A DNA stretch of 64,000 nt from NCBI GenBank assembly GCA_903851235.1, contig CAINNR010000015.1:11327-75326 (forward strand). Reading direction: 5' to 3'. Source of the DNA: an uncultured Candidatus Berkelbacteria bacterium (lineage in GTDB: Bacteria; Patescibacteriota; UBA1384; XYA2-FULL-43-10; CAINNR01). Within the stretch, counting starts at the first letter, position 1; each line of letters begins with the position of its first letter. Below the pieces are notes generated by a model, which saw only the letters and a list, made by a program, of their open reading frames with translations, was not told the origin of the DNA and ran no database searches. Made by a program: the position numbers and the translations under genes. Below are positions 7 to 48,947 of this stretch, in pieces.

Positions 7-696
7 TTGTCGCTGTTAATGTTGCAAAACCAAACAAAAATGCTGTCGGACGATCTATCACAGGCAACATTCAATTTACCGGTTAAAAATACCGCCGGCG
101 CCGATGTTTATCCCGGCAAAAACGCCGTTGATTTTTACTCGAGCTATTCAAATCCGGCAGCAGCAAACTACACTTGGAACCCCTCAATGCCGAATGATGT
201 CGACGCTTTTGTCCAGAATAAGGCGGCGATGATCTTCGGCTACTCGGATTTGGCGACCTATCTGCGCCAAGTTTACCCGAACTTTCAATTTCAGCAAGCG
301 CTAATGCCGCAGGTCGGCGACATCAATAATATTGTCGATTATGCCCATTACACTTCCTACGTTGTGCCTGAAGCATCGCCAAACGCTTCAACCGCTTGGG
401 AGTTTATCACCTCGCTTTCAACCGACGAAGCTTCAACTTACAAATCGGCGACAAAGGAAATTTCTTCGAAAAAAGTTGAAACTGATGTTGTGCTGAAAAA
501 TCGTGGTGATGGCGCGCCAACGCAGGATCAGATCAAAACCGCCCAGAGTTGGAACAAGGGTCGTTATCCGGTTGATATCGATACGCAGTTAAAACAAGCG
601 ATCGATCGAGTCAATTCTCACGCCCAAACCTCGCAAGCATCGCTTGATACCGCGGCGTCAAATGTCACTGAGCTTTTACGAAAAACAACTTGGTAG
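7..696 (+). CDS. hypothetical protein, probably 5'-truncated by window edge
   Basis: ORF open to the window start and continuing to a stop at 696; no recognisable motif; followed by a 9-bp-stem hairpin at 724..744. Confidence 0.35.
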   Translation: MSLLMLQNQTKMLSDDLSQATFNLPVKNTAGADVYPGKNAVDFYSSYSNPAAANYTWNPSMPNDVDAFVQNKAAMIFGYSDLATYLRQVYPNFQFQQALMPQVGDINNIVDYAHYTSYVVPEASPNASTAWEFITSLSTDEASTYKSATKEISSKKVETDVVLKNRGDGAPTQDQIKTAQSWNKGRYPVDIDTQLKQAIDRVNSHAQTSQASLDTAASNVTELLRKTTW

Positions 697-761: not shown

Positions 762-1241
762 ATGACACTGATATTCAAAAAAATTGCTTTCACTGTTTTT
801 ACTGTGTTTTTCGTTTTTTGTTTTTTTCTGAATTTTGCTTATGCAGCCACGACACCGGCAACAACAACTACCCCTGCAACAACATCGACTACCGCCGCCG
901 GTGTCGGTGTCGGTGTCAGTTACCCCGGTGGTGCAAATTCGAATGTTATCAAAAGCGGCGGCAGTTACACTTATACCCAGTACATTTGTCTACTCTACAG
1001 TTTTGGGATGAAAGCTGCAGTCGCCCTGTCAATTTTAATGATCGTTTACGCCGGCTATAAATACCTGACCAGCCGCGGCGACTCCGGTTCGATTAATGAG
1101 GCCAAGGATATTTTAGTCAGCACTTTAATGGGCGTGGCACTTTTAATGTTGGTAGTTCTTATCGCCAACATCGCCGGACTTAAGACCGAAAATTGGCTCT
1201 TAAGTCCCAATGCAGATAAATCCTGTTCACTCGAAAACTAA
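762..1241 (+). CDS. secreted T4SS pilin-like protein (TrbC/VirB2-like two-TM pilin module)
   Basis: N-terminal signal peptide and Thr/Pro-rich linker. C-terminal TM1-YAGYKYLTSRGD-x-AK-TM2 module matches the hairpin architecture of VirB2/TrbC-type conjugative pilins. Paralogous to 3516..3860 and to the two C-terminal modules of 1251..3335. Confidence 0.4.
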   Translation: MTLIFKKIAFTVFTVFFVFCFFLNFAYAATTPATTTTPATTSTTAAGVGVGVSYPGGANSNVIKSGGSYTYTQYICLLYSFGMKAAVALSILMIVYAGYKYLTSRGDSGSINEAKDILVSTLMGVALLMLVVLIANIAGLKTENWLLSPNADKSCSLEN

Positions 1242-1250
1242 ATAATTATT

Positions 1251-3335
1251 ATGTCAGAAAAAAAACCTATTTCAACTCGAATGATAACAAATGTCTTAAT
1301 TTCATTGTTCGGTTTTGTTATTCTGGGAGCGACAATTTTAATAAGCTGGCAAATTTGGCTCGCATCGGCCGACAACCTTTATGTCACCGACCCGAGCTTT
1401 ACCGTTTCTTATCCGCAACCAAAATTTAATTTGGCCAGTGATATTCCCAAAACTTATGTGATTAGAAAAAATGTTCCTGACATCAACGGCGTAATGCGCG
1501 ACTTTTTGGAGGTTTATGACAAGACAACTGTCGATGCGGCATTAGGTAACAACACAAAACAGCCACCAACTTATGCCATCAATTTCCAAGTAGGTGGCAC
1601 GACACATCGGATGGCGATTTTGCCTTTGACTAGTTATGATTATTCAAAAAACGGGGGCGCCAGCCTTGATTCAGCAACTTACAAGCTTCTGACTTATGCC
1701 GAATCAGTTGCAACAACCGATCAAGCCAGCGAAATTGATACCGCCAGAACTAAATATGGCGATGCCGCCAGCCCGACAACTTTGACTAACGCCTCTGTTT
1801 ATGTCAGGCCGTCAGTCAACAGCGTTCCCGCTGACGGCAAAACCGTCGTGCCAATAAAAATTTCAATCAATCCGTCACGAATTGATTCAAAACTGATAAA
1901 TCATGTTTCGGTTTTCGCCACCACATCCGCCACCACATTTACACCAACCGTTGATGATGCCGGAAAACAGGCAATTTGCACCGATGCCAATACCAAGCCG
2001 CCAACCGCACCACTATCGAACCTTTTGGGCGAAACAACTTGCGACGCCAGTGGAAATTGCGGCAGTGTTAATTTCACTGCGCCAAGCTCCACCGGCGCCC
2101 ATCAAATTTTTGCCGTTGCGATGAAATCGAATACAAAAACCGCTTGCGCTTCGGCAAATGTTTTAGGCTGGTCAGTTCTTGACGGATCGCAGTTAATCAA
2201 TGTTTATAAAGGTGTGGTTGAGTCCGGTGCCGATTTGACAGTTTCTTTTAACAACCCAGTCACCGTCGGTACACAATTTTTGGTTCGAGTACAAAGCACA
2301 AATCCGAAAATCGACCACGTTTCGCTTTTTGTCGCTAAAACCGGCGATGGCGGTTATGATTCAATTGATAACGCCGGGATTTGCAAAGCTGCCAATGCCA
2401 ATGACGCAACCACTAGTTGCACACTTTGTCTCCATGGCATAGCCGATTTCTCCGCCGGTGTTCGCGACCAAGCAATTCCGGTAACATTGGACCAGAGCGG
2501 CGAACACCGAATTATCGCTGTCGGTGTCTCCGATAAAAATCCTTGCTCCGCTGCTGATCCGGCAAGCAGTGTTGTCGGTAATTTGGTCACGGTTAACAAG
2601 GAAGGTGTCGTCTCCGCCGTCTCCGCCACTGATATCACCGGCACCGGTAAAACCGATGCAACCGGAAATGCAGGGAGTGGTGGTGGCTCCGGAACTTCAG
2701 TTGACACCGGTAGTGGGTATGTTAAGCCAGGTTGGGCTACAAGTCTCGCCAAATCGGTATCCATCACGAACATCGAGACTCTACTTAAGAAGCTCGGGCC
2801 GTTCACCCTTTATATCCTCGGTTTTCTCGCCGTACTGGCAATAATTATTGCTGGAATGAAATATATTTCCTCCTCCGGCGATCAGAAAAAATCCGAATCG
2901 GGCAAAAAAGCCCTGCTCTATTCGGTCTACGGGATTATCGCAACCGTTCTTTGCGTCGAGTTGGTCCAACTGACCATTTCCGAAGTTCAAAAAATCGTTG
3001 GTAACAAATTGGACACTAGCGCGTTGAATCCTAACAGCGGGACGGGGTTGTTATCGGGTATGGGTGGCGGGCCGAACGCCAGCGTTATGGACATTATCGG
3101 TCACAAAGATCCCCCATATGGATTTATTTGGCAGGTAATTACTCTAGCGGTTTATTACGCCGAATTCGTTGCCGTCTTTTACATTTTGTATGCCAGCTTT
3201 TTGTACATCACTTCATTTGGTGATGACAGCAAGGCCGAGAGCGCCAAAAAAACCATCATTTGGGCGGTTATCGGCATGGCTTTCATAATTTCCGCCAATG
3301 TCTTGCTCGGCATTTTCGGCAATGTACTGTCATAA
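1251..3335 (+). CDS. large membrane-anchored Cys-containing extracellular protein with two tandem C-terminal pilin-like modules
   Basis: N-terminal TM helix, about 500-aa extracellular region with many Cys. C-terminus carries two copies of the TM-Y(I/L)(S/T)S.GD..K.ES.KK-TM module (IIAGMKYISSSGDQKKSESGKK; LYASFLYITSFGDDSKAESAKK) seen in the neighbouring small pilin-like proteins. Confidence 0.5.
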   Translation: MSEKKPISTRMITNVLISLFGFVILGATILISWQIWLASADNLYVTDPSFTVSYPQPKFNLASDIPKTYVIRKNVPDINGVMRDFLEVYDKTTVDAALGNNTKQPPTYAINFQVGGTTHRMAILPLTSYDYSKNGGASLDSATYKLLTYAESVATTDQASEIDTARTKYGDAASPTTLTNASVYVRPSVNSVPADGKTVVPIKISINPSRIDSKLINHVSVFATTSATTFTPTVDDAGKQAICTDANTKPPTAPLSNLLGETTCDASGNCGSVNFTAPSSTGAHQIFAVAMKSNTKTACASANVLGWSVLDGSQLINVYKGVVESGADLTVSFNNPVTVGTQFLVRVQSTNPKIDHVSLFVAKTGDGGYDSIDNAGICKAANANDATTSCTLCLHGIADFSAGVRDQAIPVTLDQSGEHRIIAVGVSDKNPCSAADPASSVVGNLVTVNKEGVVSAVSATDITGTGKTDATGNAGSGGGSGTSVDTGSGYVKPGWATSLAKSVSITNIETLLKKLGPFTLYILGFLAVLAIIIAGMKYISSSGDQKKSESGKKALLYSVYGIIATVLCVELVQLTISEVQKIVGNKLDTSALNPNSGTGLLSGMGGGPNASVMDIIGHKDPPYGFIWQVITLAVYYAEFVAVFYILYASFLYITSFGDDSKAESAKKTIIWAVIGMAFIISANVLLGIFGNVLS

Positions 3336-3382
3336 TTTTTTGGCTGATTTTGTCCGTACTTTCGAGATTCATTGGCCCGCAA

Positions 3383-3412
3383 GATCACCTTCGGTAGACT
3401 CCGGAAGATGAT
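3383..3412 (+). repeat. 30-nt conserved upstream motif (copy 1), shared with 44371..44400
   Basis: gatcaccttcggtagactccggaagatgat; 27/30 identical to the reverse complement of 44371..44400; contains an imperfect hairpin cttcgg-uagacu-ccggaag. Confidence 0.5.
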
Positions 3413-3448
3413 TAAGTAGGAGGAAGTTTTCACGAAATTCCAAAAAAC

Positions 3449-3478
3449 TTGACAACCTTTTAGCAATGATACTAGAAT
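3449..3478 (+). promoter_or_regulatory. sigma70-like promoter for pilin-like gene 3516..3860
   Basis: TTGACA (3449-3454), 18-nt spacer, TAGAAT (3473-3478), 38 nt upstream of a GAGGAGG RBS and the ATG. Confidence 0.4.
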
Positions 3479-3515
3479 ATAATTAAGCAATAAATTAAAT
3501 AAAATTTGAGGAGGA

Positions 3516-3860
3516 ATGATGATTTCGACGATTATGAATTGGTTGGTTCCAAAAGCACATGCGGCGATGACATGGAATTTTCTTACGGTTAGCGAGACCG
3601 CCGGGGGAACTGGTACAACTGGACTCACGAGCATTGCTGACAAAATAATTACTTGGGCATCACTTATCGCGGGTATATTAGCTGTTCTATTTCTTATTTA
3701 TTCCGGCATCCTCTATATCACAGCCGGGGGGAATCCAGATTCCGCCAAAAAAGGTCAACAAGGTATTATCAATGCCATTATCGGAATTGTCATTATCACT
3801 ATAGCCTACTTTCTGGCCACAACAATCGCTCACTTCGCTGGCACTGCAACAACTCCTTAG
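3516..3860 (+). CDS. T4SS pilin-like protein (TrbC/VirB2-like)
   Basis: Strong RBS GAGGAGG. TM-LIYSGILYITAGGNPDSAKKGQQ-TM hairpin module, same family as 762..1241. Confidence 0.45.
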   Translation: MMISTIMNWLVPKAHAAMTWNFLTVSETAGGTGTTGLTSIADKIITWASLIAGILAVLFLIYSGILYITAGGNPDSAKKGQQGIINAIIGIVIITIAYFLATTIAHFAGTATTP

Positions 3861-3965: not shown

Positions 3966-5090
3966 TCAGGAGATAAAGTCCAAATAGTTTTCTCTGTTAA
4001 TAATTTTAAATGTCGCATTTTTGTAAGCAGACCAATCGCTCGGCGGCAAAACTTTTTTTAACGGAGACCATTTGCATTCAAAACCAAAAAGCCGACCGTC
4101 GCGCTCTTCAACCAAATCAATCTCTTGCCCGCCATAAGTTCGCCAAAAATAGGAATTACCATAAATACCCAAGTAAGTTCTCTTTTTCAATCGTTCGGCA
4201 ATTACAAAATTTTCCCACAATTGCCCGACATCATTTCTGTCATTAAGCGAATTAAATTGTGATATCACTGCGTTGCGAATACCGTTGTCAAGAAAAAAAT
4301 ATTTGCTTTTACTCGTCACTTCAGACCGAAGATTGCCACTGTAACCATTGAGTCGAAATATTACAAATGATTTTTCCAATAAATCCAGATAACGAGCAAC
4401 GGTTTTGACATCAATTGATAGTTGATTAGAAAGTTCATTTAAAGACACCTCTTTACCAATTTGAAAGGCCAAAAGTTTCAAAAGATCAAACAGCATTTTA
4501 GGGTTTTTGATTTTATCAAAGGCTAAAATATCCTTAAAAAGATAAGAGTTGGTTGTTTCTTCCAATATATTAATCTTTTCCGCTTTACTTTTTGCAAGCA
4601 AAACTTCCGGATAACTGCCAAAAATCATCAATTCAGTTAATTCTTCTTTTAATTCAAAAGTGTTTTTTGAATCCGATAGTTCGGTCTCTGCGATCGGAAA
4701 AAGTTTCAAAGTGGTTTTGCGACCGGTTAACGGCTCGCCAACTTGGTTTGCCAAATCAAAAGATGATGATCCGGTGGCGATAATTCGAAGTCCAGGTAGT
4801 TGGTCAACAAGAATTTTTAATCCTTGCCCGATTCCAGGAATCCGTTGCGCCTCGTCGATGGCTAAAAGTTCATATCCTTTAATATATTCTAAAATTTGTT
4901 TAAAATCTTCTGAGCCGAGAATTTGTTGGGTTCGAATGTTGTCACCGGAATCAAGTTTGTATTTTAATTTGCTTTTGTCCAAATAATTTTGCAAAAGTGT
5001 GGTTTTGCCTACGCGACGAGGACCCAAAATAATTAGGGCTTTACCTTGCTTTAAATATTTGTCCAAGTTGTCATAATATCTTTTTATCAT
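3966..5090 (-). CDS. AAA+ ATPase, DUF4143-family ATP-binding protein
   Basis: Walker A GPRRVGKTT near the N-terminus, Walker B LLAIDEAQ, length and layout typical of the AAA_14+DUF4143 family. Confidence 0.65.
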   Translation of the reverse strand: MIKRYYDNLDKYLKQGKALIILGPRRVGKTTLLQNYLDKSKLKYKLDSGDNIRTQQILGSEDFKQILEYIKGYELLAIDEAQRIPGIGQGLKILVDQLPGLRIIATGSSSFDLANQVGEPLTGRKTTLKLFPIAETELSDSKNTFELKEELTELMIFGSYPEVLLAKSKAEKINILEETTNSYLFKDILAFDKIKNPKMLFDLLKLLAFQIGKEVSLNELSNQLSIDVKTVARYLDLLEKSFVIFRLNGYSGNLRSEVTSKSKYFFLDNGIRNAVISQFNSLNDRNDVGQLWENFVIAERLKKRTYLGIYGNSYFWRTYGGQEIDLVEERDGRLFGFECKWSPLKKVLPPSDWSAYKNATFKIINRENYLDFIS

Positions 5091-5993: not shown

Positions 5994-7646
5994 TTAGTCT
6001 TTTGTTACACGCCAAACTTCGGTTGTTGTTGTCACACCTTTTAGAACTTGAATCAAACCATCCTGCTCCATTGTGATCATTCCCTCTGAGAGGGCGGTTT
6101 TTGTAAACTCGGCGATGGTTGCTTGCCGGCCGATAAGCGCTTCCATCTCCGCCGACGGCACCAAAACTTCGGCGATAACTTGGCGGCCGGAGTAACCGGA
6201 TTTGTTGCAAACCGTGCAACCGGCACCGCGCTTGAGTTTTATTTGATTGATCGGCAAATCGAGCATTGCGGCAATTTGCGGTTCAATCCGCTCCTTAATC
6301 GGAGAGAGAATATTCTTTATTTCTTCCCAAACCGGTTCGGTCGGCGAAAACTCCTCGGCACATTTGGGACAAACTTTTCGCACCAGCCGCTGGCCCATAA
6401 TTAAATTGATTGAACCGGCCAAAAGAAACGGCCGAACACCGATTTCCAAAAGTCGCGGTAGCGCGGCGGCAGCGGTGTTTGAGTGAAGTGTGGATAATAA
6501 GAGATGGCCCGTCAGCGCCGCCTGGACGCCGATTTCCGCTGTTTCCTTGTCGCGTATCTCACCAACCATTAAAATGTCCGGATCCTGGCGCAGTGCGGCT
6601 CGCAGACCATCGGCAAAAGTATAGTTGGCCTCCGGATCAACCTGGCTTTGTTCGACGCCGGAAATTCGGTATTCAATCGGGTCCTCAAGCGAGATAATTT
6701 TAATTCCAGGTTTTTTAAGCTCCATTATCATCGCATAAAGCGTCGTCGATTTTCCCGAGCCGGTCGGGCCGGTATTTAGTATCATACCGTGCGGTTTGGA
6801 AATCGCCGACTCGATTATTTTTACTGCATCCGGTCGGAAACCCAAATCGGCCAGCTTTTGAATCGACATCTCCTGACCCAGGAGCCGAAGGACGAGGCTT
6901 TCGCCGTAGGCCGAAGGCAAGGTTGAGACACGGAGGTCGATTCCGTTTGATCCGCGCTTAATCGAAAAACGTCCATCTTGCGGTTCAGCTGTGACATCCA
7001 TCTTTAATTTTGCCAGAAATTTTATCCGGGATAATAGAAATTTGTAAGTCTGGGTGTTCATTCGCAAAACATCCTGTAAGACACCATCAATTCGATATCG
7101 GGCCAAAAAATCGTCGGCACCGGGCTCGATGTGAATGTCGGAGGCATCCATTTTCGCTGCCGCAAATAATATCAAGTCAAGAAGTTCCGTCGTTGTCACC
7201 TTTTTCGCCGCCTCGGTGATGTCGGCAATCGTCTTGACCTGATCAATCAAATCCTCCTGCCGCTGAGAAACATTTAGGGCTTTCTTTTGCTGGCGTTCCT
7301 GTAGCTGGCGGAAAGAGTCAATGGCAAAAAGCAGGCCGGTTTTCGAAACCAACGAGAAGATGAACTTTGAATTATTCGTCCGCGAATACTCTTCAAGGTA
7401 ATTTTGTAACCGATCATTAACGGAACTGATGACCGCAAGCTTAATTTCCTTACCGATTTTCAAATACGGCACAAAGTTGAATTCCGACATTTTTTCCGCC
7501 GGAAACAGTAAATAAAGCTCGGAAGCAAATGGATAGCCGACCAAATCGATGTACGGCATGCCGAGCTTCCCGGCTAAACTTTGCGTCAGTTCCTCTTCAT
7601 CCTGCCGACGCAAATTAAACAATTTTTGATCAATATCAACCATCAA
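5994..7646 (-). CDS. pilB: GspE/PilB-family secretion/pilus assembly ATPase
   Basis: Walker A GPTGSGKSTT, Asp/His boxes, C-terminal CPKC...CTVC tetracysteine, N-terminal GSPII_E_N-like region. Confidence 0.8.
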   Translation of the reverse strand: MMVDIDQKLFNLRRQDEEELTQSLAGKLGMPYIDLVGYPFASELYLLFPAEKMSEFNFVPYLKIGKEIKLAVISSVNDRLQNYLEEYSRTNNSKFIFSLVSKTGLLFAIDSFRQLQERQQKKALNVSQRQEDLIDQVKTIADITEAAKKVTTTELLDLILFAAAKMDASDIHIEPGADDFLARYRIDGVLQDVLRMNTQTYKFLLSRIKFLAKLKMDVTAEPQDGRFSIKRGSNGIDLRVSTLPSAYGESLVLRLLGQEMSIQKLADLGFRPDAVKIIESAISKPHGMILNTGPTGSGKSTTLYAMIMELKKPGIKIISLEDPIEYRISGVEQSQVDPEANYTFADGLRAALRQDPDILMVGEIRDKETAEIGVQAALTGHLLLSTLHSNTAAAALPRLLEIGVRPFLLAGSINLIMGQRLVRKVCPKCAEEFSPTEPVWEEIKNILSPIKERIEPQIAAMLDLPINQIKLKRGAGCTVCNKSGYSGRQVIAEVLVPSAEMEALIGRQATIAEFTKTALSEGMITMEQDGLIQVLKGVTTTTEVWRVTKD

Positions 7647-11980: not shown

Positions 11981-12289
11981 TTATATGTTATCGCTATCAA
12001 TGCTTTCTTGCATATAACGATAAACGATTGAAATAATTTCGCGGATATCGCCGTTGACATTTTTATATATTAAATTGTCAAAAGCAATATTTTTAAATTC
12101 ACGAATTGGGTCACTGATTAGGGCATGAATGAAAGATTGCGTTGCCCCATTTACACCACCAAAATCGATAATGACTTCATTTTGCTTCAATAATGCCGGC
12201 ATAAGCTGTTCTATCCTTATTCTTTTGGCAATGTCCTTGTTTTCAGCAAAATCTCCGGCCATTCTTTTAATTTTAATAAGATTTTTCAT
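11981..12289 (-). CDS. STAS-like DUF4325 protein (partner of GHKL ATPase)
   Basis: VIIDFGGVNGATQSFIHALI matches the DUF4325 core; start overlaps the upstream ATPase gene by 4 nt (operon). Confidence 0.5.
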   Translation of the reverse strand: MKNLIKIKRMAGDFAENKDIAKRIRIEQLMPALLKQNEVIIDFGGVNGATQSFIHALISDPIREFKNIAFDNLIYKNVNGDIREIISIVYRYMQESIDSDNI

Positions 12290-13254
12290 ATAAATCTTGG
12301 TCTCCTGTATTTCTCGCGTTTGCGTTCACGGATAGCTTTGTCATAAACTACACCGATGCCAGTCAATAATTCATTAAATTCTGGAGTTTCGTCAAGCGAA
12401 ATATCCACCGCTACCAATGTTCCCTGAAAACTTGGCGCATTATTTATTTCGCCATGCGGATCTCTACTTGGGTCGGCATATAATCTTGGCACCCCCTTGA
12501 TTCGTTTGTTATGCTTATGAAGAGTATATTCGGCACTACCACTATAAATAGCAAAGTAATTACGGGTAATTTTCGCTATCGACTTAACAAAGAACAATCC
12601 GGCGCCGGCATTTTCAGCAGTACCTCCTTCGCGTCTCGTTGTGCCCGTAATTCCTGGTGTTAAAGCCAATTTTATGGCTTCGATATGTGTTTTGGGATGC
12701 CAGTGAGTTTGTAAACTTTTCCAAATACCGATACCGGTATCGCAAATTCCGATACTGACCCGATTGGTTTTTTTGTAATATTGAGCAGCGACGACGGCGC
12801 CGCTCTTTGCAAAAGAGTGTTCCAGAACGTTTCTTACTAACTCACCAAAAATATATTTAATCACTGTCGCGTTTTTTTCTGATAGATGTAGAAGTGGAAT
12901 CATATCGGTAATAAAATGAGATTGTTCTTCAGCTGTTTTAATAATTTTAATAGGCAGGAATCGTCCGGATTCTTCTTTTTTATGATAATGAAATGGTGAA
13001 GATGTTTTTACAAAGTTAAAAAGCCCCATTCTGTCTAAATATCGTCCTGTGTCAGGAATGTCGCCAATAATTTCTGTGTTTTTCATACCAACTTTGATCG
13101 CCAGTGCAACTACCAAAACAAGATTAGCTGGATGAACAGTAATCCATTTATTATGAGTTGTTATCTCTAGTTTTCTTGGGTTTGAAAGGTCAAGAGATTC
13201 TACAAATTGTCGAAAATTTCGCAGATTCCCTTGATTTGATAAAAATATTCTCAT
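12286..13254 (-). CDS. GHKL-superfamily (histidine-kinase-like) ATPase, anti-sigma/serine-kinase-like
   Basis: N-box GELVRNVLEHS, G1 DTGIGI, G2 GAGLFF in the C-terminal half; about 150-aa N-terminal extension of unknown function. Confidence 0.6.
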   Translation of the reverse strand: MRIFLSNQGNLRNFRQFVESLDLSNPRKLEITTHNKWITVHPANLVLVVALAIKVGMKNTEIIGDIPDTGRYLDRMGLFNFVKTSSPFHYHKKEESGRFLPIKIIKTAEEQSHFITDMIPLLHLSEKNATVIKYIFGELVRNVLEHSFAKSGAVVAAQYYKKTNRVSIGICDTGIGIWKSLQTHWHPKTHIEAIKLALTPGITGTTRREGGTAENAGAGLFFVKSIAKITRNYFAIYSGSAEYTLHKHNKRIKGVPRLYADPSRDPHGEINNAPSFQGTLVAVDISLDETPEFNELLTGIGVVYDKAIRERKREKYRRPRFI

Positions 13255-13534
13255 AAGTATACTTTACCCGTCAGATGATTTTGTGTCAATAGGCACTCTA
13301 CGGGTAATTACTCCATAGGAGATCAGAATGTGAAATTGGATTTAGGCTAAATATGGCATAGTCAGGGTATCTCAATGCAATCACCAGCAAACCCCAGCAC
13401 AAATACTTATTGTACAAATCACTCGAATAAGGAATTCTCGGCAGAAAAGATAGTCGCTGTCCCCAAAAGAAAGTATTTGGGAAATTTGAGTTTGTCCATT
13501 TGGTTGTATTTTCTGGCGGACTGGATGCACTTCA

Positions 13535-13570
13535 CTTCGAATACCTTTTTGTCTGGCTTGACCAGTTAAG
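13535..13570. repeat. left copy of imperfect direct repeat flanking the AbiE cassette
   Basis: cttcgaatacctttttgtctggcttgaccagttaag; 33/36 identical to 15259..15294. Weaker similarity extends about 35 nt further on the left (tgtccatttgg..ggcggactg vs tgtctcatttggcgggctg). Confidence 0.6.
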
Positions 13571-13633
13571 GAAGACATACGATTCCGATAACATTTGCTA
13601 AATCACACCACAGATAATTTTGTCTGCGTCAAA

Positions 13634-14350
13634 TTAATTACTTTCGTTTATTAACCCTGGTTTGTCAGCATAAAGCTTTAAGCGAAAAAGCAGGTCGGAA
13701 ATCATTTTTGTTTTAACGTAGTTTTTTTGCTTGATATCTAGAATTTCACCTAAACCTTGTAGAATATTTAGCGTCCCTTTATTTTTTTCGAGGTAACCGG
13801 CCATCTTACTGAAGTATGCCGGTAATTCCATCCCTGTTCGACTTAAAATGATTTCTTTTTTAATCGGCCAATCATTGTTGAGAAAAAACCAACAGTCGAA
13901 CCAGTCACGATTCACCATTATTTTACGATCAAAGATAGCAACTAATTTATTGGCCGCAAGACAGTCTTTGTCCATGACTATAATCGGCAGACCATAATAT
14001 TCTTGAATGTTATAGGTATTTTCCGTATTTACCCTTTTTGAAATTTCGATTTTTATGCTGTGATCACCGTTTTTGTATGAGAGGCGGAAAAAGATCGTAT
14101 TTTGTTTGATCATTTCATCTTTGATATCCCCATACTTTATGGCAATAGATTTAACTTGATCGAAGATTTGTTGGTTATTGTCTTGAGATAAAAGATCAAA
14201 GTCCAAATCTGTCGAGAATCTTGGCAGATTGTAAAAAAGATAAGCCGCCGTGCCACCTTTAAACCCGAGCTTTTGGCTTAAACTCGGTTCACTGTAAATA
14301 TCAAATAGTATTTTTGTCATAAAATTTTCATGCACGGCTCGATCAAGCAT
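13634..14350 (-). CDS. abiEii: AbiEii/AbiGii-family nucleotidyltransferase toxin (type IV TA / abortive infection)
   Basis: LGFKGGTAAYLFYNLPRFSTDLDFDL matches the DUF1814/AbiEii signature; overlaps upstream abiEi by 8 nt. Confidence 0.7.
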   Translation of the reverse strand: MLDRAVHENFMTKILFDIYSEPSLSQKLGFKGGTAAYLFYNLPRFSTDLDFDLLSQDNNQQIFDQVKSIAIKYGDIKDEMIKQNTIFFRLSYKNGDHSIKIEISKRVNTENTYNIQEYYGLPIIVMDKDCLAANKLVAIFDRKIMVNRDWFDCWFFLNNDWPIKKEIILSRTGMELPAYFSKMAGYLEKNKGTLNILQGLGEILDIKQKNYVKTKMISDLLFRLKLYADKPGLINESN

Positions 14351-14927
14351 AATTTTCCTTTAGTCTTTTAATTTGTGATAAAAGTCGTTTATTAGAATAA
14401 GCCCGTGCGATCCGAAGACACAAATCCCAGTCGATATCGGTCAATTGATCAAAAACAAAATCTGGCGAGAGATAGAGAGTGTCGACAATCGACCTTTCCT
14501 TGGAAGCCACGGTTTTATTGCCAAGAAAGTGTATTCCAGCCGGATTGAGAAGGATTGGACCTTTAATTTTTTTATATACATATTCCGTATTTCCAACTGT
14601 AATCGACCGGCTTTGGTTTGAAACCGAATATATCCTTGAATCATATTGAAAATTGATTCCATTTTGCGCTAGAGCAGAATACAGGCCGAAATAAGACGGG
14701 GTAATCATTTTATTGGCCAGTTCAATCTTGTCATAGTTTTTACCAAGAGCGTAAAATCCCTTGCGAATGAGGAAGAGTTTTTGCGATTTGATCAAGCGGT
14801 TAATCTTTGTTTTAAGATAGTCATCTTTGTCAATCCGCCAAATTAAACTTAGGTCTTTAATCGAAAAGACGGTTTTTTGGCTTCGATAAAGCAAAACAAT
14901 TGGGTCTATTTTATTAGCTGATGTCAT
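14343..14927 (-). CDS. abiEi: AbiEi-family antitoxin/transcriptional regulator
   Basis: Length and IKDLSLIWRIDKDDYLKTKINRLIKSQKLFLIRKGFYAL winged-helix-like N-terminus typical of AbiEi; operon with abiEii. Confidence 0.6.
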   Translation of the reverse strand: MTSANKIDPIVLLYRSQKTVFSIKDLSLIWRIDKDDYLKTKINRLIKSQKLFLIRKGFYALGKNYDKIELANKMITPSYFGLYSALAQNGINFQYDSRIYSVSNQSRSITVGNTEYVYKKIKGPILLNPAGIHFLGNKTVASKERSIVDTLYLSPDFVFDQLTDIDWDLCLRIARAYSNKRLLSQIKRLKENYA

Positions 14928-15258
14928 ATATAAGTTATCAATAATGATTACCTATATTGTATATTATCAAATTAAATTTGTCAATAGTCACCGGCTCTTT
15001 GTCTCAATTTTGGCATAATATCAAATTCGGGGGGCTAAATTACCGGGTTTTGATGCATCAGTAGTAGATAATTGATCATTTATTTGCAGAAACTTGTAAT
15101 TAAATGGCTTAGAAGGATTTACAGGACTTACTAAACAGCCATTTTCAGACCCCATATTTTGCTATTAAGCCTTATTTTTAGTCCATTTTACAGAGCAATT
15201 TTGGACTTGCAGCCGATGAAACCTGGTCTTGTCTCATTTGGCGGGCTGAAACAATTTC

Positions 15259-15294
15259 CTTCGAATACCTTTTAGTCTGGTTTGACCAATTAAG
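15259..15294. repeat. right copy of imperfect direct repeat flanking the AbiE cassette
   Basis: cttcgaataccttttagtctggtttgaccaattaag; see 13535..13570. Confidence 0.6.
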
Positions 15295-15365
15295 ACAGAT
15301 TTTCAACATTCTCTGAATTTGCTGTCCTGCGTCCTTCAGTCTTTAATTGTTCCGATTATTTTGGT

Positions 15366-15662
15366 TCATTGTTCACGAATGACGAAAGATCGTTTATTGA
15401 TCTCTTGTAGAATCTTTAATGTTGCCTGTACCGACATGTTATCGCTTGGTAATAATACTAATTTATCTCCAAGTTGCTCAAATAAGGGGCCTAAAAATTC
15501 GTCCCCCCAAGAAGGGGAAAAAGTCAAAACGCCGGAGAAATCAATTTCCAAATTTTCATTTGGCTTAATGCCTTTGAATGCCGGTTGAAAAGCCTTGAAA
15601 GCTTCAAGTCCGGCTTGGCGAGAAATAAGTGTTGTCCCAAATTTTTTTAGTTCTATTAACAT
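15366..15662 (-). CDS. STAS-like DUF4325 protein (second copy)
   Basis: LEIDFSGVLTFSPSWGDEFLGPL core; immediately downstream of the HTH-GHKL ATPase gene. Confidence 0.5.
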   Translation of the reverse strand: MLIELKKFGTTLISRQAGLEAFKAFQPAFKGIKPNENLEIDFSGVLTFSPSWGDEFLGPLFEQLGDKLVLLPSDNMSVQATLKILQEINKRSFVIREQ

Positions 15663-15693
15663 AGATTTGTCCTTAATTATTTTATGATTAATA

Positions 15694-16413
15694 TTAGAAT
15701 TGGATTATAGCGGAACAACCCCTGAACATCTCTTGCCCGCGGGTAAGACGAAACTCCCTACCAGGCGACTTAATTCGAACTTCGGCATCTCCACTCTCAA
15801 AGAATAGGTCAATTGGCTGAGTTGTGGTAACTTCTCGAACAAACTTTAATCCATTTCCGCGTTTTTCCGGAGATCGTCCCGAGAGGATCTCTGTAAAGGC
15901 AACCTTAACTGCTTCAGTGTGATTTTTTAATGTAGGGCGTACCTGACGAAGTGTCTCCAAAATACCAAGACCACGGTCAGCAAGCACAATCTGCTTTTTG
16001 TTAATATCATATCCGAAAAAAATACCCGGCACATCCGGCCACTTCCCAAGATTGTGATCAAAGGAATTGTTTCCTATTTCACCAGTAATAGCAATGATAA
16101 CTGAAAACAATTTCTCAAAACCAGGTTGCTCCATCAACAATAATTCCAGCCTTGATAGCCTAACTTGAAAAACTGCGCTATTACTACAGTAAAATGCGGA
16201 AGGGAATTCCGAGCCCTCTTTCGCCCAATTATGAGCAAGCTTAACATTGTCACTTGAAAATATTTCAAGATCATTTTCTCTATAAAATCTGTGTACTCCC
16301 CCTTGTTTTCTGATCGCGACAAGCTTTCCACTACTGTCCCAGCGGCGGAGTGTGTCAATTGAAACACCAAGTATTTTTGATGCTTGAGAAATTGTAAGTA
16401 GTTGTTCTTCCAT
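15694..16413 (-). CDS. MerR/excisionase-type HTH fused to GHKL-family ATPase
   Basis: N-terminal ISQASKILGVSIDTLRRWDSSGKL HTH; C-terminal N-box GEIGNNSFDH, G1 DRGLGI, G2 GNGLKF. Confidence 0.55.
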   Translation of the reverse strand: MEEQLLTISQASKILGVSIDTLRRWDSSGKLVAIRKQGGVHRFYRENDLEIFSSDNVKLAHNWAKEGSEFPSAFYCSNSAVFQVRLSRLELLLMEQPGFEKLFSVIIAITGEIGNNSFDHNLGKWPDVPGIFFGYDINKKQIVLADRGLGILETLRQVRPTLKNHTEAVKVAFTEILSGRSPEKRGNGLKFVREVTTTQPIDLFFESGDAEVRIKSPGREFRLTRGQEMFRGCSAIIQF

Positions 16414-16679: not shown

Positions 16680-16757
<78 letters not shown>

Positions 16758-16772
<15 letters not shown>

Positions 16773-18541: not shown

Positions 18542-18691
18542 AAACTCCTTAAGTTAAAATCAAAATGTCAAAATCCAAATTTCAAATGAAATACTTGCGA
18601 CAAATGTTCAAAAAATTCAGTTTTTTAACCTCGACTTGCCGAAGGTGAGACGGGTGAGCTTCATTTGATATTTGAGCTTTGAGTTTTGGGC

Positions 18692-18925: not shown

Positions 18926-18990
18926 GAATTTTCATAGTCATTTCAAACAATAACATTGAAATGACTAAACTATTTGAGAGTATTGGATAT

Positions 18991-19326: not shown

Positions 19327-19354
19327 TGAACTGATGATAGCACTATTTTACGAA

Positions 19355-19387
19355 CAAAAAAAGGCGCCTGACCCGAAGGCCAGACGC
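19355..19387 (-). terminator. rho-independent terminator of the high-GC cassette (UUCG tetraloop)
   Basis: On minus strand gcgucuggcc-UUCG-ggucaggcgc (10-bp stem with 2 GU) followed by UUUUUUU. Confidence 0.65.
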
Positions 19388-19412
19388 TTGTTACATTTGT
19401 GAATGTCGGAAT

Positions 19413-20127: not shown

Positions 20128-20128
20128 C

Positions 20129-40821: not shown

Positions 40822-42969
40822 CTACATACTTTCTTGGTCGCCGGGGGTTTGGCCGGATTGGGCCAGAAGTTGCTCCGGATTGGTGGTGATTACCTGATCC
40901 TCGGAGTAGGAAGCTATGACTTTGATCGCCACATGATTCAAGCCGGCAAAAAACAAGCCTTCGCCGACATCGCTTTCCAGGAGAAGATATTTTTCACCCT
41001 CGGTTAAGCCGAAAGTTTCGGCGATGATATCAACTGACGCCGTCGATTGTTTCAAAAGAATTTGCATTGATGAGTTGGAAACAATTGATTTTCCATATCG
41101 TGATGAGAGGAAATCCTCGACATCTTGGCTGATGATCGTTAATCCCAAATAGTATTTTCTGGCGCGTTTCGCCAAGCCGTGGAGGAATTTGGCCGAGTCT
41201 TCGTACTGCATCATCCACCAAGCTTCATCAATAATCATCAACCGGCGACGCATATCCATCCGAATTTTGGTCCAAATATAATTTAGAATCGTGTACATTG
41301 CCACCGGTCGGAGTGCTTCCTCCAAATCACGGACGGAGAAGACGACAAAACCGGGTTTTAGTTCAAAGTTGGTCGGAGCATTGAACAGTCCGGCAAATGT
41401 TCCCTCAACGTACTTTGACAGCCTCCTGGTGATACTTTCGGTGCCGTTCATGTTGGAGAGAACGTTGTAAAAATCCTGCATAATCGGCGGTTCGTTTTTC
41501 TGGCTCTCCGGATCGGTGGTTATATCCTTTAGGGCATATGCTTCGTACAGACCTTTTTCAACCAATGAATCCTCCTCCGGTGTTAAACCGGCAACCATCA
41601 AATTGATCAAACCGTGAACCGAAGAGATATTCGATCGCAGAACATCCTCGCCTGACTCTTTCTCTGGATCGAGTCCGCGCGGCAAATCAAAGGGATTAAT
41701 TCGCTGCTGGGAATTTAGCGAATAGCGTAAATAACTGCCACCGACGGCATCGCAAAGATTTTTGTACTCCGATTCCGGATCGACAATAATAATATCGGTG
41801 CCGAACATCAAACTTCGCAAGGCTTCCAATTTGATCATGTAAGATTTACCCGAACCGGACTTGGCAAAGACGACCGAGTTGGCATTTTCCAGCGAGAAGC
41901 GGTCGAAAATGATCAATGAATTATTGTGGCGATTAATACCGTATAAAATTCCATCCTCCTGGGTCAACTCCGATGAGGTGAAGGGGAAGATTGATGAGAC
42001 TGAGCCGGTGTCCAAATTTCGCAGAACGGAAATTGAGTCGCGCATCATCGGTGCGGTGGAGATAAATCCCTCTGACATTTGTAACAGCGTTTCTTTGGTG
42101 TAAATTAACATTCCACCCAAAGTTGATTCTAACTGTTTAGTTACAGTGTTTAACTCCTCGAGTGTGTGAGCGTAAATCGTAAAGTATAATCCCAATTGGA
42201 AGAGTCGAACCTCACCGCGTTGCAAGACATCACGCAATGATTCAACATCACCAAGCGCAGTTTCCAACTCCGGGTCGCGCGGTTGGCCCTTTTCTTGGGC
42301 AATCATAAGTGATGACTGAATTTTGCCCACTTGGCTTTTCAGATCTTTCATAACATTAGTGGTTTCCAGCGGATGGATGTGCATGCCGATGTCCATTGTA
42401 ATGTCATAATTAATTAGCGGTGAAAGCCAATTGGCGTCAAGATAACGCGGATAGGTGTAGACGAAAAGTGTTTTACAAAATGTGTCACCGAGTTGCAAAT
42501 AATTTGGATTAAGGACGAAGGCCGCCGGCGCAATAATGTCTCGAACAGTTAACATTCCCTCCTGGAAGATTTTTTGCGCTTCCCTGACCTCAAGATTCTC
42601 TTGAGCAATGGTGCGAGGATCGGTGCTGATCGCAGTTGGCTGATCGGTCAAATTGGGTTTACTTGTGGCGAGCGGAGTCGAACCATTGGTCTCACTGGAC
42701 AAATCTGGTTTGGGCGTCAGCGACTGGACCGGAATGGCGACTTGTGGCGGCAATTTGAATTTTGTCGTCACATTCGCCTGATCCGAAAGACCGGTTTTGT
42801 TACCTGTCTTTTTCACTTGATCGGCTTGCCAAAAATCAGCCGAGTCGTTAGTCGGCTGTACCGGATTTGCCGAATTCACCGGCGCGCCAAAAGTAGCAGC
42901 AGGTGTTGCGTTGATTGGAGTACTTGCTGGCGGAGTATCGGGAATTAAATTTTGGTTTGTTTGGGCCAT
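40822..42969 (-). CDS. virB4: VirB4/TraE/PrgJ-family T4SS ATPase (C-terminal ATPase part)
   Basis: Disordered 130-aa N-terminus, then DUF87-like region; Walker A AKSGSGKSYMIK, Walker B MIIDEAWWMM, C-terminal motifs typical of VirB4/CagE. Confidence 0.85.
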   Translation of the reverse strand: MAQTNQNLIPDTPPASTPINATPAATFGAPVNSANPVQPTNDSADFWQADQVKKTGNKTGLSDQANVTTKFKLPPQVAIPVQSLTPKPDLSSETNGSTPLATSKPNLTDQPTAISTDPRTIAQENLEVREAQKIFQEGMLTVRDIIAPAAFVLNPNYLQLGDTFCKTLFVYTYPRYLDANWLSPLINYDITMDIGMHIHPLETTNVMKDLKSQVGKIQSSLMIAQEKGQPRDPELETALGDVESLRDVLQRGEVRLFQLGLYFTIYAHTLEELNTVTKQLESTLGGMLIYTKETLLQMSEGFISTAPMMRDSISVLRNLDTGSVSSIFPFTSSELTQEDGILYGINRHNNSLIIFDRFSLENANSVVFAKSGSGKSYMIKLEALRSLMFGTDIIIVDPESEYKNLCDAVGGSYLRYSLNSQQRINPFDLPRGLDPEKESGEDVLRSNISSVHGLINLMVAGLTPEEDSLVEKGLYEAYALKDITTDPESQKNEPPIMQDFYNVLSNMNGTESITRRLSKYVEGTFAGLFNAPTNFELKPGFVVFSVRDLEEALRPVAMYTILNYIWTKIRMDMRRRLMIIDEAWWMMQYEDSAKFLHGLAKRARKYYLGLTIISQDVEDFLSSRYGKSIVSNSSMQILLKQSTASVDIIAETFGLTEGEKYLLLESDVGEGLFFAGLNHVAIKVIASYSEDQVITTNPEQLLAQSGQTPGDQESM

Positions 42970-43932: not shown

Positions 43933-44349
43933 CTAATTTGGACTAGTCCGTCCGCGTTTATCTATTACACTTGCCAGCTTTTCAATATCGGCACGCGAAT
44001 ATCGTTTGTTGGCGTACGGATCGGCAACTCTCTCAACTTTCGGCTGATAAATCTCAACCCGGACATTATTTTCGCTTTTATGCCAAAGTCTGGTTTTCGG
44101 GTTGGCGGCATAGGCCATGGCGTTTTTCAGAAACTGACCAAAGGAGCGACCATTGACTTTAACGAAACAGATGCAAAATGTCAGGATAAAAATCGGCAAA
44201 GCCAGAACCCAGTTGATCGGGGATGGAAGTGAACTAATGGCGATATAACCGGCGCCGCCACCGAGAACGGCATAGACAAACTGGACCATCGAAAGTGGTC
44301 CCAAAATTTTATCCTCGATATCGATTTTTTGTGGCACTTTGAACTGCAT
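43933..44349 (-). CDS. PrgI/VirB3-like small two-TM T4SS protein
   Basis: 138 aa, conserved MQFKVPQKIDIEDKILGPLSMVQFVYAVLGG start and two adjacent TM helices as in the PrgI family; position upstream of VirB4. Confidence 0.4.
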   Translation of the reverse strand: MQFKVPQKIDIEDKILGPLSMVQFVYAVLGGGAGYIAISSLPSPINWVLALPIFILTFCICFVKVNGRSFGQFLKNAMAYAANPKTRLWHKSENNVRVEIYQPKVERVADPYANKRYSRADIEKLASVIDKRGRTSPN

Positions 44350-46655: not shown

Positions 46656-48947
46656 TTATTTTTCCTCCGTTTCAAATTTAGCAGATGGGTCAATTTTCAA
46701 AGCAATCTCTCTGGCAGTGAGTAAATCGTCACGAGCAACACTTTCTTGACCGGCTTTGGCTAATCGCTCAAGTTCATTTGGGTCGCCGCCGTTTTTTAGC
46801 TCCTGAGCGACGAATTGAAGTGTGGCTTCCTGTCTTTCAGCCATCCTGATTGCTTGCACACCGGTAGATCTTGCAACACGAGTCTGGAGGATTTTGAGTT
46901 GTTCAGCAGCTGCTGGAGTAATTCCTTTTATTTGAACATCGAGTTCTGGAACATGCCCTATTCCAAAGCCAACACTGGTTGGCTTAAACATGTCGGCCAT
47001 GGTTTTTGCACTATCGATACCTCCCTCACCTTTGTTTTTCAATGTTTCATTGATATCATCCAGGCGACTTTCAATCCCGGCCATATCTACTGGGACTGCG
47101 GAAGATGCCCGGCTTTCCTCCTCTTCCTCCTCGGCGTCATAATCATCACCCGCACCAGCGGGTTGTCGTTCTGCTCGTTGTCGAGCCCTTTGTGCTGCTT
47201 GACGTTCTGCATTAGATTGAGGAACTCTTGCGCCTCTATCAACACTTACGTCACGATGGTCTGTCACCATATAGCCACCTTCGCCCGGTTTGCGAAAAAA
47301 TTCCTCAATTGTTTTAACTTCACCTTCCGGCATACTTCCGTCTTCCAGTTCTGCCAATCGTTTGTTATTTACTCTTCTTCTGGCTTCCTGAGTTGATGCA
47401 ATGTAGGCGGCAATTTCGTCTCCTCTTTTTTCTGGATCATTTAGGTTGACGCCCTTGCCACCCTGATCCTTTGATTTCATTAAATTTACCTTGAAATAAT
47501 CCTCAATACCTTTTCTATATTCAGGTTCGGTTGAAACTCTATAAACATCTGCCCGTTCTCTGGTTCCATCGGCGTTCCTGTGATACAACTGTCTTTCGGC
47601 AAGATCTTTAAGTTTAAACTGGTCTTTGTAATTTGGACCGGATTCTTCTGCGCCAAGATCGCCAAACACAGCTTTTAGCCGTCCCTTGGTGACTGGGTCT
47701 TTAGCCCGGACATCTTCCAACCACTTTGGCCCTTTGTCTTCCAAGAAGTTCATGATATTAATTTTTTTCCTGATTTCTTCTTGTTTTTTTATCTTTCTAG
47801 CGTACAGATCTCTTGTGACCGTGCCCTTACCAATTGCCCGGTCTATTGATCGCACGACAGGCAATTTTCTCGCGCCTTCTCTTGCCCAGTTTTTTCCAAC
47901 GCCGTATTGAAAACTGACATAATCTTTTGCGGCTTTAACTCCGACTCCTCCAGTTGCGTTCCAAGCTGCTCCGCCGGTTTTGGACCAGGCTTTTTTGCCG
48001 AAGTTTGCCCAAGCGCCGACGGCGGCACCACCGGCTTTAAACGGCGAAGTGATCGCCATATACAAGCAAAGACCGGCAAAACCCATTTGCAAAACCCATG
48101 ATCCATCAGGTCCGATAGTATTTAGAAACTCGCCTGCCAGCCAGAGCCAGAAAACGGAAATTACCGGCATAAAAACCCATTTTAAGAATTGACTCCACCA
48201 CTGTTGAAAGTATTTTTTGGTAATCGGCAAAATCATTGCCATAAAAGCCGCCGGAGAAATGCAAATTAGAAAATACAGGAAATAATTTCGGATTAAAAAG
48301 ATGAAGGCCAAAATTGCGACTAAAACGGCGCCGACTGCGACGAAAATTTGTTTTAGAATGTAGACGAGAATGTATCCTGGGTAATTGCCGGTAAAACCGG
48401 CCGGACCTGTTGGCGATTGTTTTATCAAACCATTAAATGCTCCGGTGACATTGCCGGCGTTGTCACCGGTTAAGAAGGCGGAGATTGCTACATTGCCAAT
48501 ATCCAACAACATTCTAGCGATTAAGAAGCTGAAATTTGCCAGAATTATAGCGATAATAAATGTTGGTAGGAATTTTTTGACCGCGTACGAATCCAGCTGA
48601 ATTCGCAAGATATTCATAAAGGCGACCCAAATCAGAACGGCAAGAACCAAGGAATCCACAACTTTCATGATTGTGTACCAAATTGTGACCGTGGTCGCGC
48701 CCATGCCGGTAAAGCACAACGAAGCGTCTTTGACAGTGCCGGTTGCGGCTTTGACAGTCGAATCGCAACCATCTTTTGGCATCATAACTTGATAAATCGG
48801 TTCGACCGTTGGCAATGCGGCTTGAGCTTTGAGCGGAGAAAAGAAAACAAAAAAGCTGAATAGAAAAATCGTTACTGAAAAAATTAGCGTTTTGTGAAGA
48901 AAAATTAGGTTTTTGATTTTTTTATTCATATTTGCAACCGATTTCAT
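46656..48947 (-). CDS. VirB6/TrbL-like polytopic membrane protein with extended hydrophilic C-terminal domain
   Basis: N-terminal signal/TM, at least 7 TM helices in the first 330 aa, then about 400-aa charged C-terminal region (extended VirB6 type); position in the T4SS cluster. Confidence 0.55.
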   Translation of the reverse strand: MKSVANMNKKIKNLIFLHKTLIFSVTIFLFSFFVFFSPLKAQAALPTVEPIYQVMMPKDGCDSTVKAATGTVKDASLCFTGMGATTVTIWYTIMKVVDSLVLAVLIWVAFMNILRIQLDSYAVKKFLPTFIIAIILANFSFLIARMLLDIGNVAISAFLTGDNAGNVTGAFNGLIKQSPTGPAGFTGNYPGYILVYILKQIFVAVGAVLVAILAFIFLIRNYFLYFLICISPAAFMAMILPITKKYFQQWWSQFLKWVFMPVISVFWLWLAGEFLNTIGPDGSWVLQMGFAGLCLYMAITSPFKAGGAAVGAWANFGKKAWSKTGGAAWNATGGVGVKAAKDYVSFQYGVGKNWAREGARKLPVVRSIDRAIGKGTVTRDLYARKIKKQEEIRKKINIMNFLEDKGPKWLEDVRAKDPVTKGRLKAVFGDLGAEESGPNYKDQFKLKDLAERQLYHRNADGTRERADVYRVSTEPEYRKGIEDYFKVNLMKSKDQGGKGVNLNDPEKRGDEIAAYIASTQEARRRVNNKRLAELEDGSMPEGEVKTIEEFFRKPGEGGYMVTDHRDVSVDRGARVPQSNAERQAAQRARQRAERQPAGAGDDYDAEEEEEESRASSAVPVDMAGIESRLDDINETLKNKGEGGIDSAKTMADMFKPTSVGFGIGHVPELDVQIKGITPAAAEQLKILQTRVARSTGVQAIRMAERQEATLQFVAQELKNGGDPNELERLAKAGQESVARDDLLTAREIALKIDPSAKFETEEK

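Follow-up and report, generated by a model that had tools for sequence, protein, structure and literature searches.

The window analysed here is a 64,000-nucleotide stretch of an uncultured Candidatus Berkelbacteria bacterium (assembly GCA_903851235.1, contig CAINNR010000015.1). Near its start, three neighbouring open reading frames (ORFs) on the plus strand (762-1241, 1251-3335 and 3516-3860) encode proteins of 159, 694 and 114 amino acids (aa) which together contain four homologous copies of a two-helix, pilin-like module. The modules resemble the VirB2-type pilins of type IV secretion systems (T4SS). The 159-aa protein (pilin A) and the 114-aa protein (pilin B) have one copy each; the 694-aa protein has two, M1 and M2, at its C-terminus, behind a hydrophilic stretch of about 470 aa. 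This fusion, and the order of the three genes, are conserved in related genomes. There is about an even chance that the 694-aa protein is a minor pilin of a T4SS which carries a variable ectodomain on the filament as a host-contact adhesin.

Four pilin-like modules in three genes

All four modules share the motif aG.kY(I/L)(T/S)s.Gd..ka...KK, which surrounds a Lys-rich loop in the alignment. Hydropathy places transmembrane (TM) helices at residues 77-95 and 117-135 of pilin A, after a signal-like N-terminal segment, and at residues 50-68 and 83-101 of pilin B, as one hairpin. The 694-aa protein begins with a hydrophobic segment (15-33), continues with the hydrophilic stretch and ends in two TM hairpins (518-536/554-572 and 629-650/669-687). 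In M1 a short helix leads into two TM helices, which are separated by the charged loop SSSGDQKKSESGKK. The layout of a VirB2-like pilin, with two hydrophobic helices, a short charged Lys-rich loop and a predicted leader, is thus found by hydropathy, in the helices of the AlphaFold2 (AF2) model and in the sequence itself. The usual size of a single small pilin (about 50-150 aa) fits pilins A and B; it does not fit the 694-aa protein, with its ectodomain and two modules.

Hidden Markov models (HMMs) were trained on three module classes at a time, using sequences from other genomes only, and were run against the full set of 746 ORFs from the six reading frames of the window. The left-out class was recovered each time (36 to 64 bits, listed by class in Table 1; E-values from 2e-10 to 4e-19), and the best unrelated ORF reached at most 10.8 bits. 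HMM, Pfam and hydropathy results agree on what a sequence-only reading of this DNA had described: a module present four times in three adjacent genes, with two of the copies ending the 694-aa protein. An HMM search of the window ORFs found no fifth copy, and a search for extra pilin genes beside virB4 in the window found none.

The modules match the Pfam family T4SS_pilin (PF18895, gathering threshold 26.6 bits). The 694-aa protein is matched in two stretches (58.1 bits) and pilin B over the full model; both are above threshold. Pilin A lies just below it (Table 1), and its orthologue in the related locus L001 has a weak precomputed match to the same family. Among database relatives of the module, several of the more distant ones also reach the threshold of the classical TrbC/VirB2 model (PF04956, 27.9 bits), for example P0033 (37.4 bits), P0020 (90.8 bits) and P0094 (109 bits). 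Type IV (PilA-type) pilins were considered and rejected: the G↓F/M-T-L-I-E prepilin motif is absent from the three sequences, each module has two TM helices, and Pfam reports no type IV pilin family for the three proteins at E up to 1. Assignment of the modules to the VirB2/TrbC-like T4SS pilin superfamily rather than to PilA, proposed earlier from the letters alone, is therefore supported at the level of sequence, with PF18895 above threshold in two of the three proteins. The locus also corresponds to the published definition of a VirB2 array in Patescibacteria, i.e. 2-11 pilin genes in tandem or with one non-pilin gene between them (PMC12102498): it has three adjacent module genes, and VirB4 is encoded in the same window.

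Conservation of the fusion

A profile of the double module was searched exhaustively against 1.84 billion representative sequences. There were 19,130 matches at E ≤1e-3 and 30 at E ≤1e-30. About fifteen representatives (clusters at 50% identity) of 595-788 aa bear the double module at the extreme C-terminus. The GTDB species genomes which contain the 694-aa family are metagenome-assembled genomes (MAGs) of Berkelbacteria/Patescibacteria. Word-indexed searches gave no match with the alignment of the N-terminal domain and three fragments only with the C-terminal 211 aa.

The question of whether orthologous loci keep the fusion can be answered in the affirmative. The order lipoprotein resembling a solute-binding protein (SBP), pilin A, ectodomain-M1-M2 and pilin B is found in nine species-level genomes, in the window and in two metagenomic contigs. 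The conserved order is wider still, with genes for HSP20 and an NTP-transferase ahead of the SBP-like lipoprotein; beyond pilin B, on the opposite strand, most of those loci have genes for a PilB-type ATPase, DUF7544 and GH1. Alignments show that the reading frame across the fusion junctions is conserved at the protein level.

Identity across genomes is 50-63% within each of the four module classes (63% in class A) and 17-27% between classes. Judged by these identities, the four are old orthologous classes. Conservation is unevenly spread along the 694-aa protein. When the window protein is set against the twelve main-family relatives, identity is 47-67% in M1, 50-80% in M2 and 18-40% in the N-terminal domain; no other region is conserved as well as M2. 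In the Ig-like middle identity does not rise above noise (5-18%), except in the two closest relatives, the only ones that can be aligned there. In two outlying relatives (P0079 and P0130) the modules are just 23-36% identical. The linker between the modules also has fixed positions: G606, G607, P608, I615, I616 and G617 are invariant in a four-sequence alignment (A2), and the G-P core is invariant too in a six-sequence alignment of double modules (A1). This pattern of conserved modules and a variable ectodomain fits, as far as sequence can tell, a host-contact adhesin borne on pilin modules.

An artefact, either a chance likeness of hydrophobic helices or a false 694-aa fusion from an assembly or frameshift error, is hardly credible. 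Short TM-rich sequences do yield many weak spurious Pfam matches, and in locus L009 (8097-10609) two separate ORFs of 417 and 416 codons make up the orthologue of the 694-aa gene, possibly because of a frameshift, a sequencing error or pseudogene formation. However, the leave-one-class-out HMM scores stand far above those of any other ORF, the same full-length architecture occurs on independent contigs from many samples and in the roughly fifteen clusters noted above, and the fused frame is kept. False gene fusion and chance resemblance are ruled out by the representative search, the conserved loci and these HMMs.

The fusion partners are not the same everywhere. In a distant Berkelbacteria MAG (L015, 8736-10927) the large protein (494 aa) bears M1 and a B-like module; the M2-like module is a separate gene of 114 codons, followed by a normal B gene. 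The free M2-like gene and the altered partner imply that fusions join neighbouring members of the array and that the partners have changed in evolution.

The ectodomain and leader sequences

The AF2 model of the 694-aa protein was built from a 15-sequence alignment and is usable domain by domain only; a four-sequence alignment gave a predicted local distance difference test score (pLDDT) of 37 and was discarded. The ectodomain begins with an alpha/beta domain (residues 41-175, pLDDT about 80) and continues with two beta-sandwich regions (pLDDT 50-70). Long helical hairpins, each preceded by a short helix, are predicted at 508-583 and 625-693 (pLDDT about 70). Foldseek searches of the PDB gave only generic matches to tandem sandwiches of the MG/FN3/Ig kind, such as complement C5 (E 4e-5). 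An HMM of the N-terminal domain matches double-module proteins only, and the domain is thus confined to the 694-aa family. The description of this protein as Cys-rich was overstated: it has 9 Cys in all, 8 of them within the ectodomain.

The leaders of the pilin proteins end in an A-x-A-like motif. Whereas the N-terminus of the 694-aa protein had been read as a membrane anchor, its hydrophobic segment looks like a cleavable signal peptide; cleavage is predicted because the segment is followed by the conserved, A-x-A-like W(L/F)xSA↓D. The leader of class B is of another kind. Orthologues in L001, L006, L007, L010 and L012-L015 share the sequence M(N)WL(V/I)x(K/R)A(H/Y)A (3516-3566 in the window), which lacks the basic n-region of an ordinary Sec signal peptide and has only a short hydrophobic stretch.

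Tandem and domain-fused pilins

Fusion of pilin modules is widespread among the database relatives. At least two modules, and up to ten, are present in 142 of the 152 best representatives, a count biased towards multi-module proteins by the two-module query profile. Pfam itself finds 6-7 PF18895 stretches in P0018, P0020 and P0094. Proteins with 5-10 tandem T4SS_pilin modules are common in the best matches; examples include P0018, P0019, P0020, P0023 and P0094. Other families have N-terminal extensions of 258-476 aa ahead of 2-4 modules. Both kinds lie within pilin arrays. Locus L028 (1777-3435) encodes a six-module protein amid four small pilins. In locus L029 (3405-9596), which also provides an example of the extended kind, the proteins with pilin modules measure 465, 913, 331 and 210 aa, and a gene for a PKD-repeat protein comes next. 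To judge from these sequences, display of a folded N-terminal domain and tandem fusion are recurrent in the pilin-module superfamily.

Two related loci have a class-A pilin with an FN3-like domain between the signal peptide and the GVGVGV segment (L006, 7437-8231; L014, 3398-4078). These ORFs have 265 and 227 codons respectively, compared with 159 aa for pilin A of the window. Two candidates were rejected: P0006 (175 aa), considered as a free-standing double module, is truncated by a contig end, and P0057 (1920 aa, with eight apparent stretches) is a spurious repetitive sequence.

No account of pilin modules joined with large domains or with one another was found in the literature searched on T4SS and Patescibacteria. 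The sequence-only reading had called the architecture unusual; this holds for the literature searched, but not in sequence space, where multi-module and domain-fused PF18895 proteins are common. The array itself is of a known kind in Patescibacteria; the member with an ectodomain and a double module and the tandem pilin polyproteins appear to be undescribed.

Genomic setting

The genes of a T4SS are present in the same genome region, on the minus strand (Table 1). Cluster mates of the VirB4-like ATPase are named TraC or DUF87 protein of Berkelbacteria and Patescibacteria. Homologues of the 763-aa polytopic protein, the candidate VirB6-like platform, adjoin pilin arrays in L019 and L023. The cluster is of the monoderm type and also holds M23 and M15 peptidases. 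We infer that this T4SS, with its VirB4-like ATPase, is the partner machine of the pilin array. The two lie on opposite sides of the replication-origin region (17669-24550), where yidC and rnpA are read from the minus strand and dnaA, dnaN and recF from the plus strand; the array is about 17 kb from dnaA. T4SS genes close to dnaA have also been noted in Patescibacteria (PMC12102498). Most window ORFs of at least 110 aa were scanned, and none of these was identified as a relaxase or coupling protein. A tblastn search with pilin B against 72,556 plasmids gave no match.

Table 1. Features of the pilin array and of the T4SS genes in the window
Feature	Position	Strand	Evidence or remarks
SBP-like lipoprotein, C-terminal part	7..696	+	Gene runs off the window start; SBP_bac_1 22.7 bits, cut-off 26
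Pilin class A, 159 aa	762..1241	+	Signal peptide (…NFAYA↓A), Thr/Pro-rich segment, conserved GVGVGV segment
VirB2-like module of class A, about aa 70-150	762..1241	+	PF18895 25.9 bits; leave-class-out HMM 36.3 bits, E 1.7e-10
Signal peptide or anchor of the 694-aa protein, aa 1-40	1251..1370	+	K/R-rich start, hydrophobic core of about 22 aa, conserved W(L/F)xSA↓D
N-terminal alpha/beta domain of ectodomain, aa 41-175	1371..1775	+	YKLLTYA motif; AF2 pLDDT about 80; 18-40% identity in main family
Variable middle of ectodomain, aa 176-460	1776..2630	+	Two beta-sandwich (Ig/FN3/MG-like) regions, 8 Cys
Gly/Ser/Thr-rich linker, aa 461-505, probably disordered	2631..2765	+	pLDDT <50 at 460-512; composition
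Module M1, aa 506-583	2766..2999	+	PF18895 stretch 507-567; helices 508-540 and 545-583; HMM 40.8 bits
Inter-module linker, aa 584-624	3000..3122	+	Conserved GGPNA…DIIG motif
Module M2, aa 625-694 plus stop codon	3123..3335	+	Second PF18895 stretch; helices 625-653 and 659-693; HMM 54.9 bits
Sigma-70-like promoter TTGACA-18-TAGAAT	3449..3478	+	11/12 match to consensus, consensus match only; upstream of pilin B
Shine-Dalgarno sequence GAGGAGG	3508..3514	+	Before ATG ATG start (3516/3519)
Pilin class B, 113-114 aa	3516..3860	+	Leader M..WLVPKAHA↓A, one VirB2-like module; PF18895 49.9 bits, full model; HMM 63.6 bits
VirB4-like ATPase	40822..42969	-	Pfam TraG P-loop 111 bits, AAA_10, DUF87
PrgI (VirB3-like)	43933..44349	-	PF12666 40.6 bits, cut-off 27
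Polytopic membrane protein, 763 aa, candidate VirB6-like platform	46656..48947	-	Weak TrbL/VirB6 match, 13.3 bits, below cut-off

The SBP-like lipoprotein is complete in relatives (456-472 aa; L001, 5075-6445, and L004, 42-1442). Its gene is directly upstream of the array in every related locus, including the distant Doudnabacteria-type loci L021 and L022. A lipobox (LTGC) is present in the L004 orthologue, which weakly matches the sugar-binding SBP 3uor (E 2.7e-4). A gene for a PilB-type T2SSE ATPase (5994-7646, minus strand, 385.9 bits) is convergent to the array and has no type IV pilus genes adjoining it. It adjoins the array in the window and in ten related loci (L001, L006-L008, L010, L011, L013, L014, L020 and L027), and two or more of the lineages with this adjacency are further removed. 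Either a functional link or mere synteny may lie behind it.

These neighbours raise an alternative, namely that the array, the SBP-like lipoprotein and perhaps the PilB-type ATPase form a separate envelope device and not a T4SS, for example for uptake of host solutes, in which the PF18895 hairpins would serve as membrane part or conduit. The recurrence of both neighbours and the detachment of the array from virB4 would suit such a device, and a review has speculated that the T4SS or a pilus of Patescibacteria might import host molecules (PMC12857230). It is nevertheless improbable. Homologous arrays in other Patescibacteria (L019, L023 and L025) directly adjoin genes for VirB6-like proteins, PrgI and VirB4, and a pilin is encoded near virB4 in 1135 of 1948 assemblies (PMC12102498). 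Much of the order shared with the pilB, HSP20 and NTP-transferase genes may be no more than the collinearity of related genomes. As an SBP the lipoprotein is weakly assigned, with a score below the family cut-off (Table 1), and the L001 orthologue is without a Pfam match. No gene for an ABC permease or ABC ATPase was found near the orphan SBP-like lipoprotein gene.

Several other genes of the window should be mentioned. An AAA_14/DUF4143 ATPase gene of low GC content (3966-5090, minus strand, about 35%) separates the array from pilB. No locus other than the window, L002 and L006 has it there, a distribution suggestive of a variable or mobile gene. A stretch of low GC content (12286-16413, minus strand, about 37%) contains an AbiEii-type toxin gene (13634-14350), an adjacent ORF of 194 aa, and genes for HATPase_c-like and MerR/HTH proteins. 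It adjoins tRNA-Ser (16682-16772) and may be an island. At the end of the T4SS cluster there is an ORF of 2414 aa (26002-33246, minus strand) with no Pfam match at E up to 0.001; it adjoins the M23 and M15 peptidase genes and genes for PEGA/PD40 and CarboxypepD_reg-like proteins.

Expression signals

The 114-aa gene had been credited with a strong promoter and ribosome-binding site of its own, and these are indeed by far the best matches among the genes (Table 1). Pilin A has a weak Shine-Dalgarno sequence (GGA) and the 694-aa gene none that is obvious. The best Shine-Dalgarno spacing for pilin B favours the second ATG (3519), giving 113 aa, as called in an identical contig. The contrast between the genes is consistent, on these consensus matches, with pilin B as the bulk subunit. 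Between the stop codon of the SBP-like gene and the start of pilin A there is an inverted repeat, CCTGAAT caa ATTCAGG (716-742); it could form a hairpin which modulates read-through.

Proposed role of the 694-aa protein

As a minor pilin, the 694-aa protein could act as follows. All four modules would probably insert in the membrane as hairpins, with their ends outside and the Lys-rich loop in the cytoplasm, like VirB2. Class B, predicted to be strongly expressed, would be the bulk subunit; class A and the 694-aa protein would be accessory subunits. The latter would be made with a signal peptide and would display its ectodomain, i.e. the conserved N-terminal domain and the variable Ig/FN3-like sandwiches, on the outside. 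The flexible Gly/Ser linker would tie the ectodomain to the covalently joined M1 and M2, which would fill two neighbouring subunit positions in assembly on the VirB6-like platform. After extraction onto this platform, the ends of the modules would sit on the filament surface. The simplest reading is that the 694-aa protein would enter the filament first and end at the tip, where its ectodomain would bind the host. Since there is no VirB5, a monoderm-type T4SS would otherwise be without a host-contact adhesin.

A number of observations weigh against this role. The pilin array is 37 kb from virB4, outside the T4SS cluster. The classical model PF04956 is not reached by the window proteins (15.1 bits for the 694-aa protein and 10.1 bits for pilin A), and no sequence in the PDB matches the double-module profile. 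The AF2 model of the 694-aa protein is of low overall confidence (pLDDT 59, predicted template modelling score 0.30). A domain of 470 aa makes heavy steric demands on a pilin. If the N-terminal segment were uncleaved, both ends of the protein would be fixed in the membrane and it could not be released. Finally, no pilus has been observed for a patescibacterial T4SS (PMC12857230), so that 'pilin' is an annotation by homology.

Some of the same points would suit a surface adhesin which is kept in the membrane and never extruded. The hairpins would then be an anchor, or a stationary part of the T4SS base which docks the VirB6-like protein or the pilins. Four TM helices and a possibly uncleaved N-terminal segment would hold such a protein firmly, a large ectodomain is hard to accommodate in a pilus lattice, ordinary adhesins have variable ectodomains as well, and the want of an observed pilus also speaks for retention. 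This is possible, if on balance doubtful. An anchor would need neither two separately conserved pilin paralogues nor a charged loop and an inter-module motif, and yet M2 is the best-conserved part of the protein. The gene always sits between free pilin genes, and in L015 the M2-like module is itself a free-standing pilin gene.

Comparison with known systems

In a survey of Patescibacteria, 441 VirB2-like arrays of 2-11 genes were described, with an average identity of 25% and with PF18895 among the profiles used (Quinonero-Coronel et al. 2025, PMC12102498). The array of the window belongs to the same Pfam family and phylum, and its tandem paralogues are similarly divergent (17-27%). It is likewise close to the origin and accompanied by a monoderm-type T4SS with VirB4, PrgI and a VirB6-like protein. 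It differs in its distance from virB4, in the SBP-like lipoprotein ahead of it, and above all in the one member which has a large ectodomain and two covalently linked modules; in the published descriptions examined, pilins are treated as small single proteins and such fusions are not mentioned. No adhesin was detected for the T4SS of Patescibacteria in the same survey (PMC12102498).

Classical VirB2/TrbC/TraA pilins (PF04956) have a comparable layout, with a leader peptide, a short N-terminal helix, two long hydrophobic helices and a short charged loop. They are single modules of about 70-120 aa from Gram-negative T4SS, whereas the host here is a monoderm. Classical pilins are not known to bear large ectodomains in nature or to occur as tandem fusions. 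Structures of conjugative pili show the two termini of the pilin on the outer face and its loop along the lumen (bioRxiv 10.64898/2025.12.18.695078); with the same predicted outside position of the N-terminus, a fused domain would be exposed on the pilus.

Closer in cell type are PrgF of pCF10 and the pilin-like proteins of Gram-positive bacteria and Mycoplasma, which are small two-TM, charged-loop proteins of monoderm-type T4SS. For PrgF, which is VirB2-like, polymerisation on a pentamer of a VirB6-like protein has been proposed, in which the charged loop would face the lumen and the two termini the exterior; a VirB5-like tip was not found in pCF10 (bioRxiv 10.64898/2025.12.18.695078). Unlike the 694-aa protein, these are single small proteins. 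Against the model for Mbov_0395-family pilin-like proteins of Mycoplasma integrative and conjugative elements (NF045849, cut-off 40 bits), the 694-aa protein scores 38.8 bits and pilin B 22.8 bits, both below the cut-off, the former only narrowly.

Two further likenesses are analogies only. VirB5/TraC tip adhesins are variable host-binding elements of a T4SS pilus and have no homology to the 694-aa protein; there the tip is a separate protein, whereas here the binding domain would be a covalent part of pilin modules. The Trw system of Bartonella has amplified and diverged paralogues of trwL/trwJ (VirB2/VirB5), and its pilin paralogues are thought to widen the host range (PMC12102498).

Implications for Patescibacteria

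A broader proposal, which is tentative and rather unlikely, is that covalent fusion is a general design of T4SS filaments in Patescibacteria. Tandem pilins of 2-10 modules and domain-bearing pilins would seed or cap the filament; ectodomain-M1-M2 would be the equivalent of a VirB5 tip adhesin and would choose the host cell, perhaps with the SBP-like lipoprotein taking up host material. The abundant tandem pilin polyproteins in any case raise a structural question, that of covalently linked protomers in a five-start pilus lattice.

Southlakia epibionticum ML1, so far the only patescibacterium open to genetics, requires both its T4SS and its array of six pilins to live as an epibiont (PMC10633639, PMC12857230). 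The 694-aa family, with a rapidly diverging Ig-like domain on two conserved pilin modules, is a concrete and testable candidate for the element which contacts the host. Its ectodomain, or an epitope, could also be a handle for locating the filament by microscopy.

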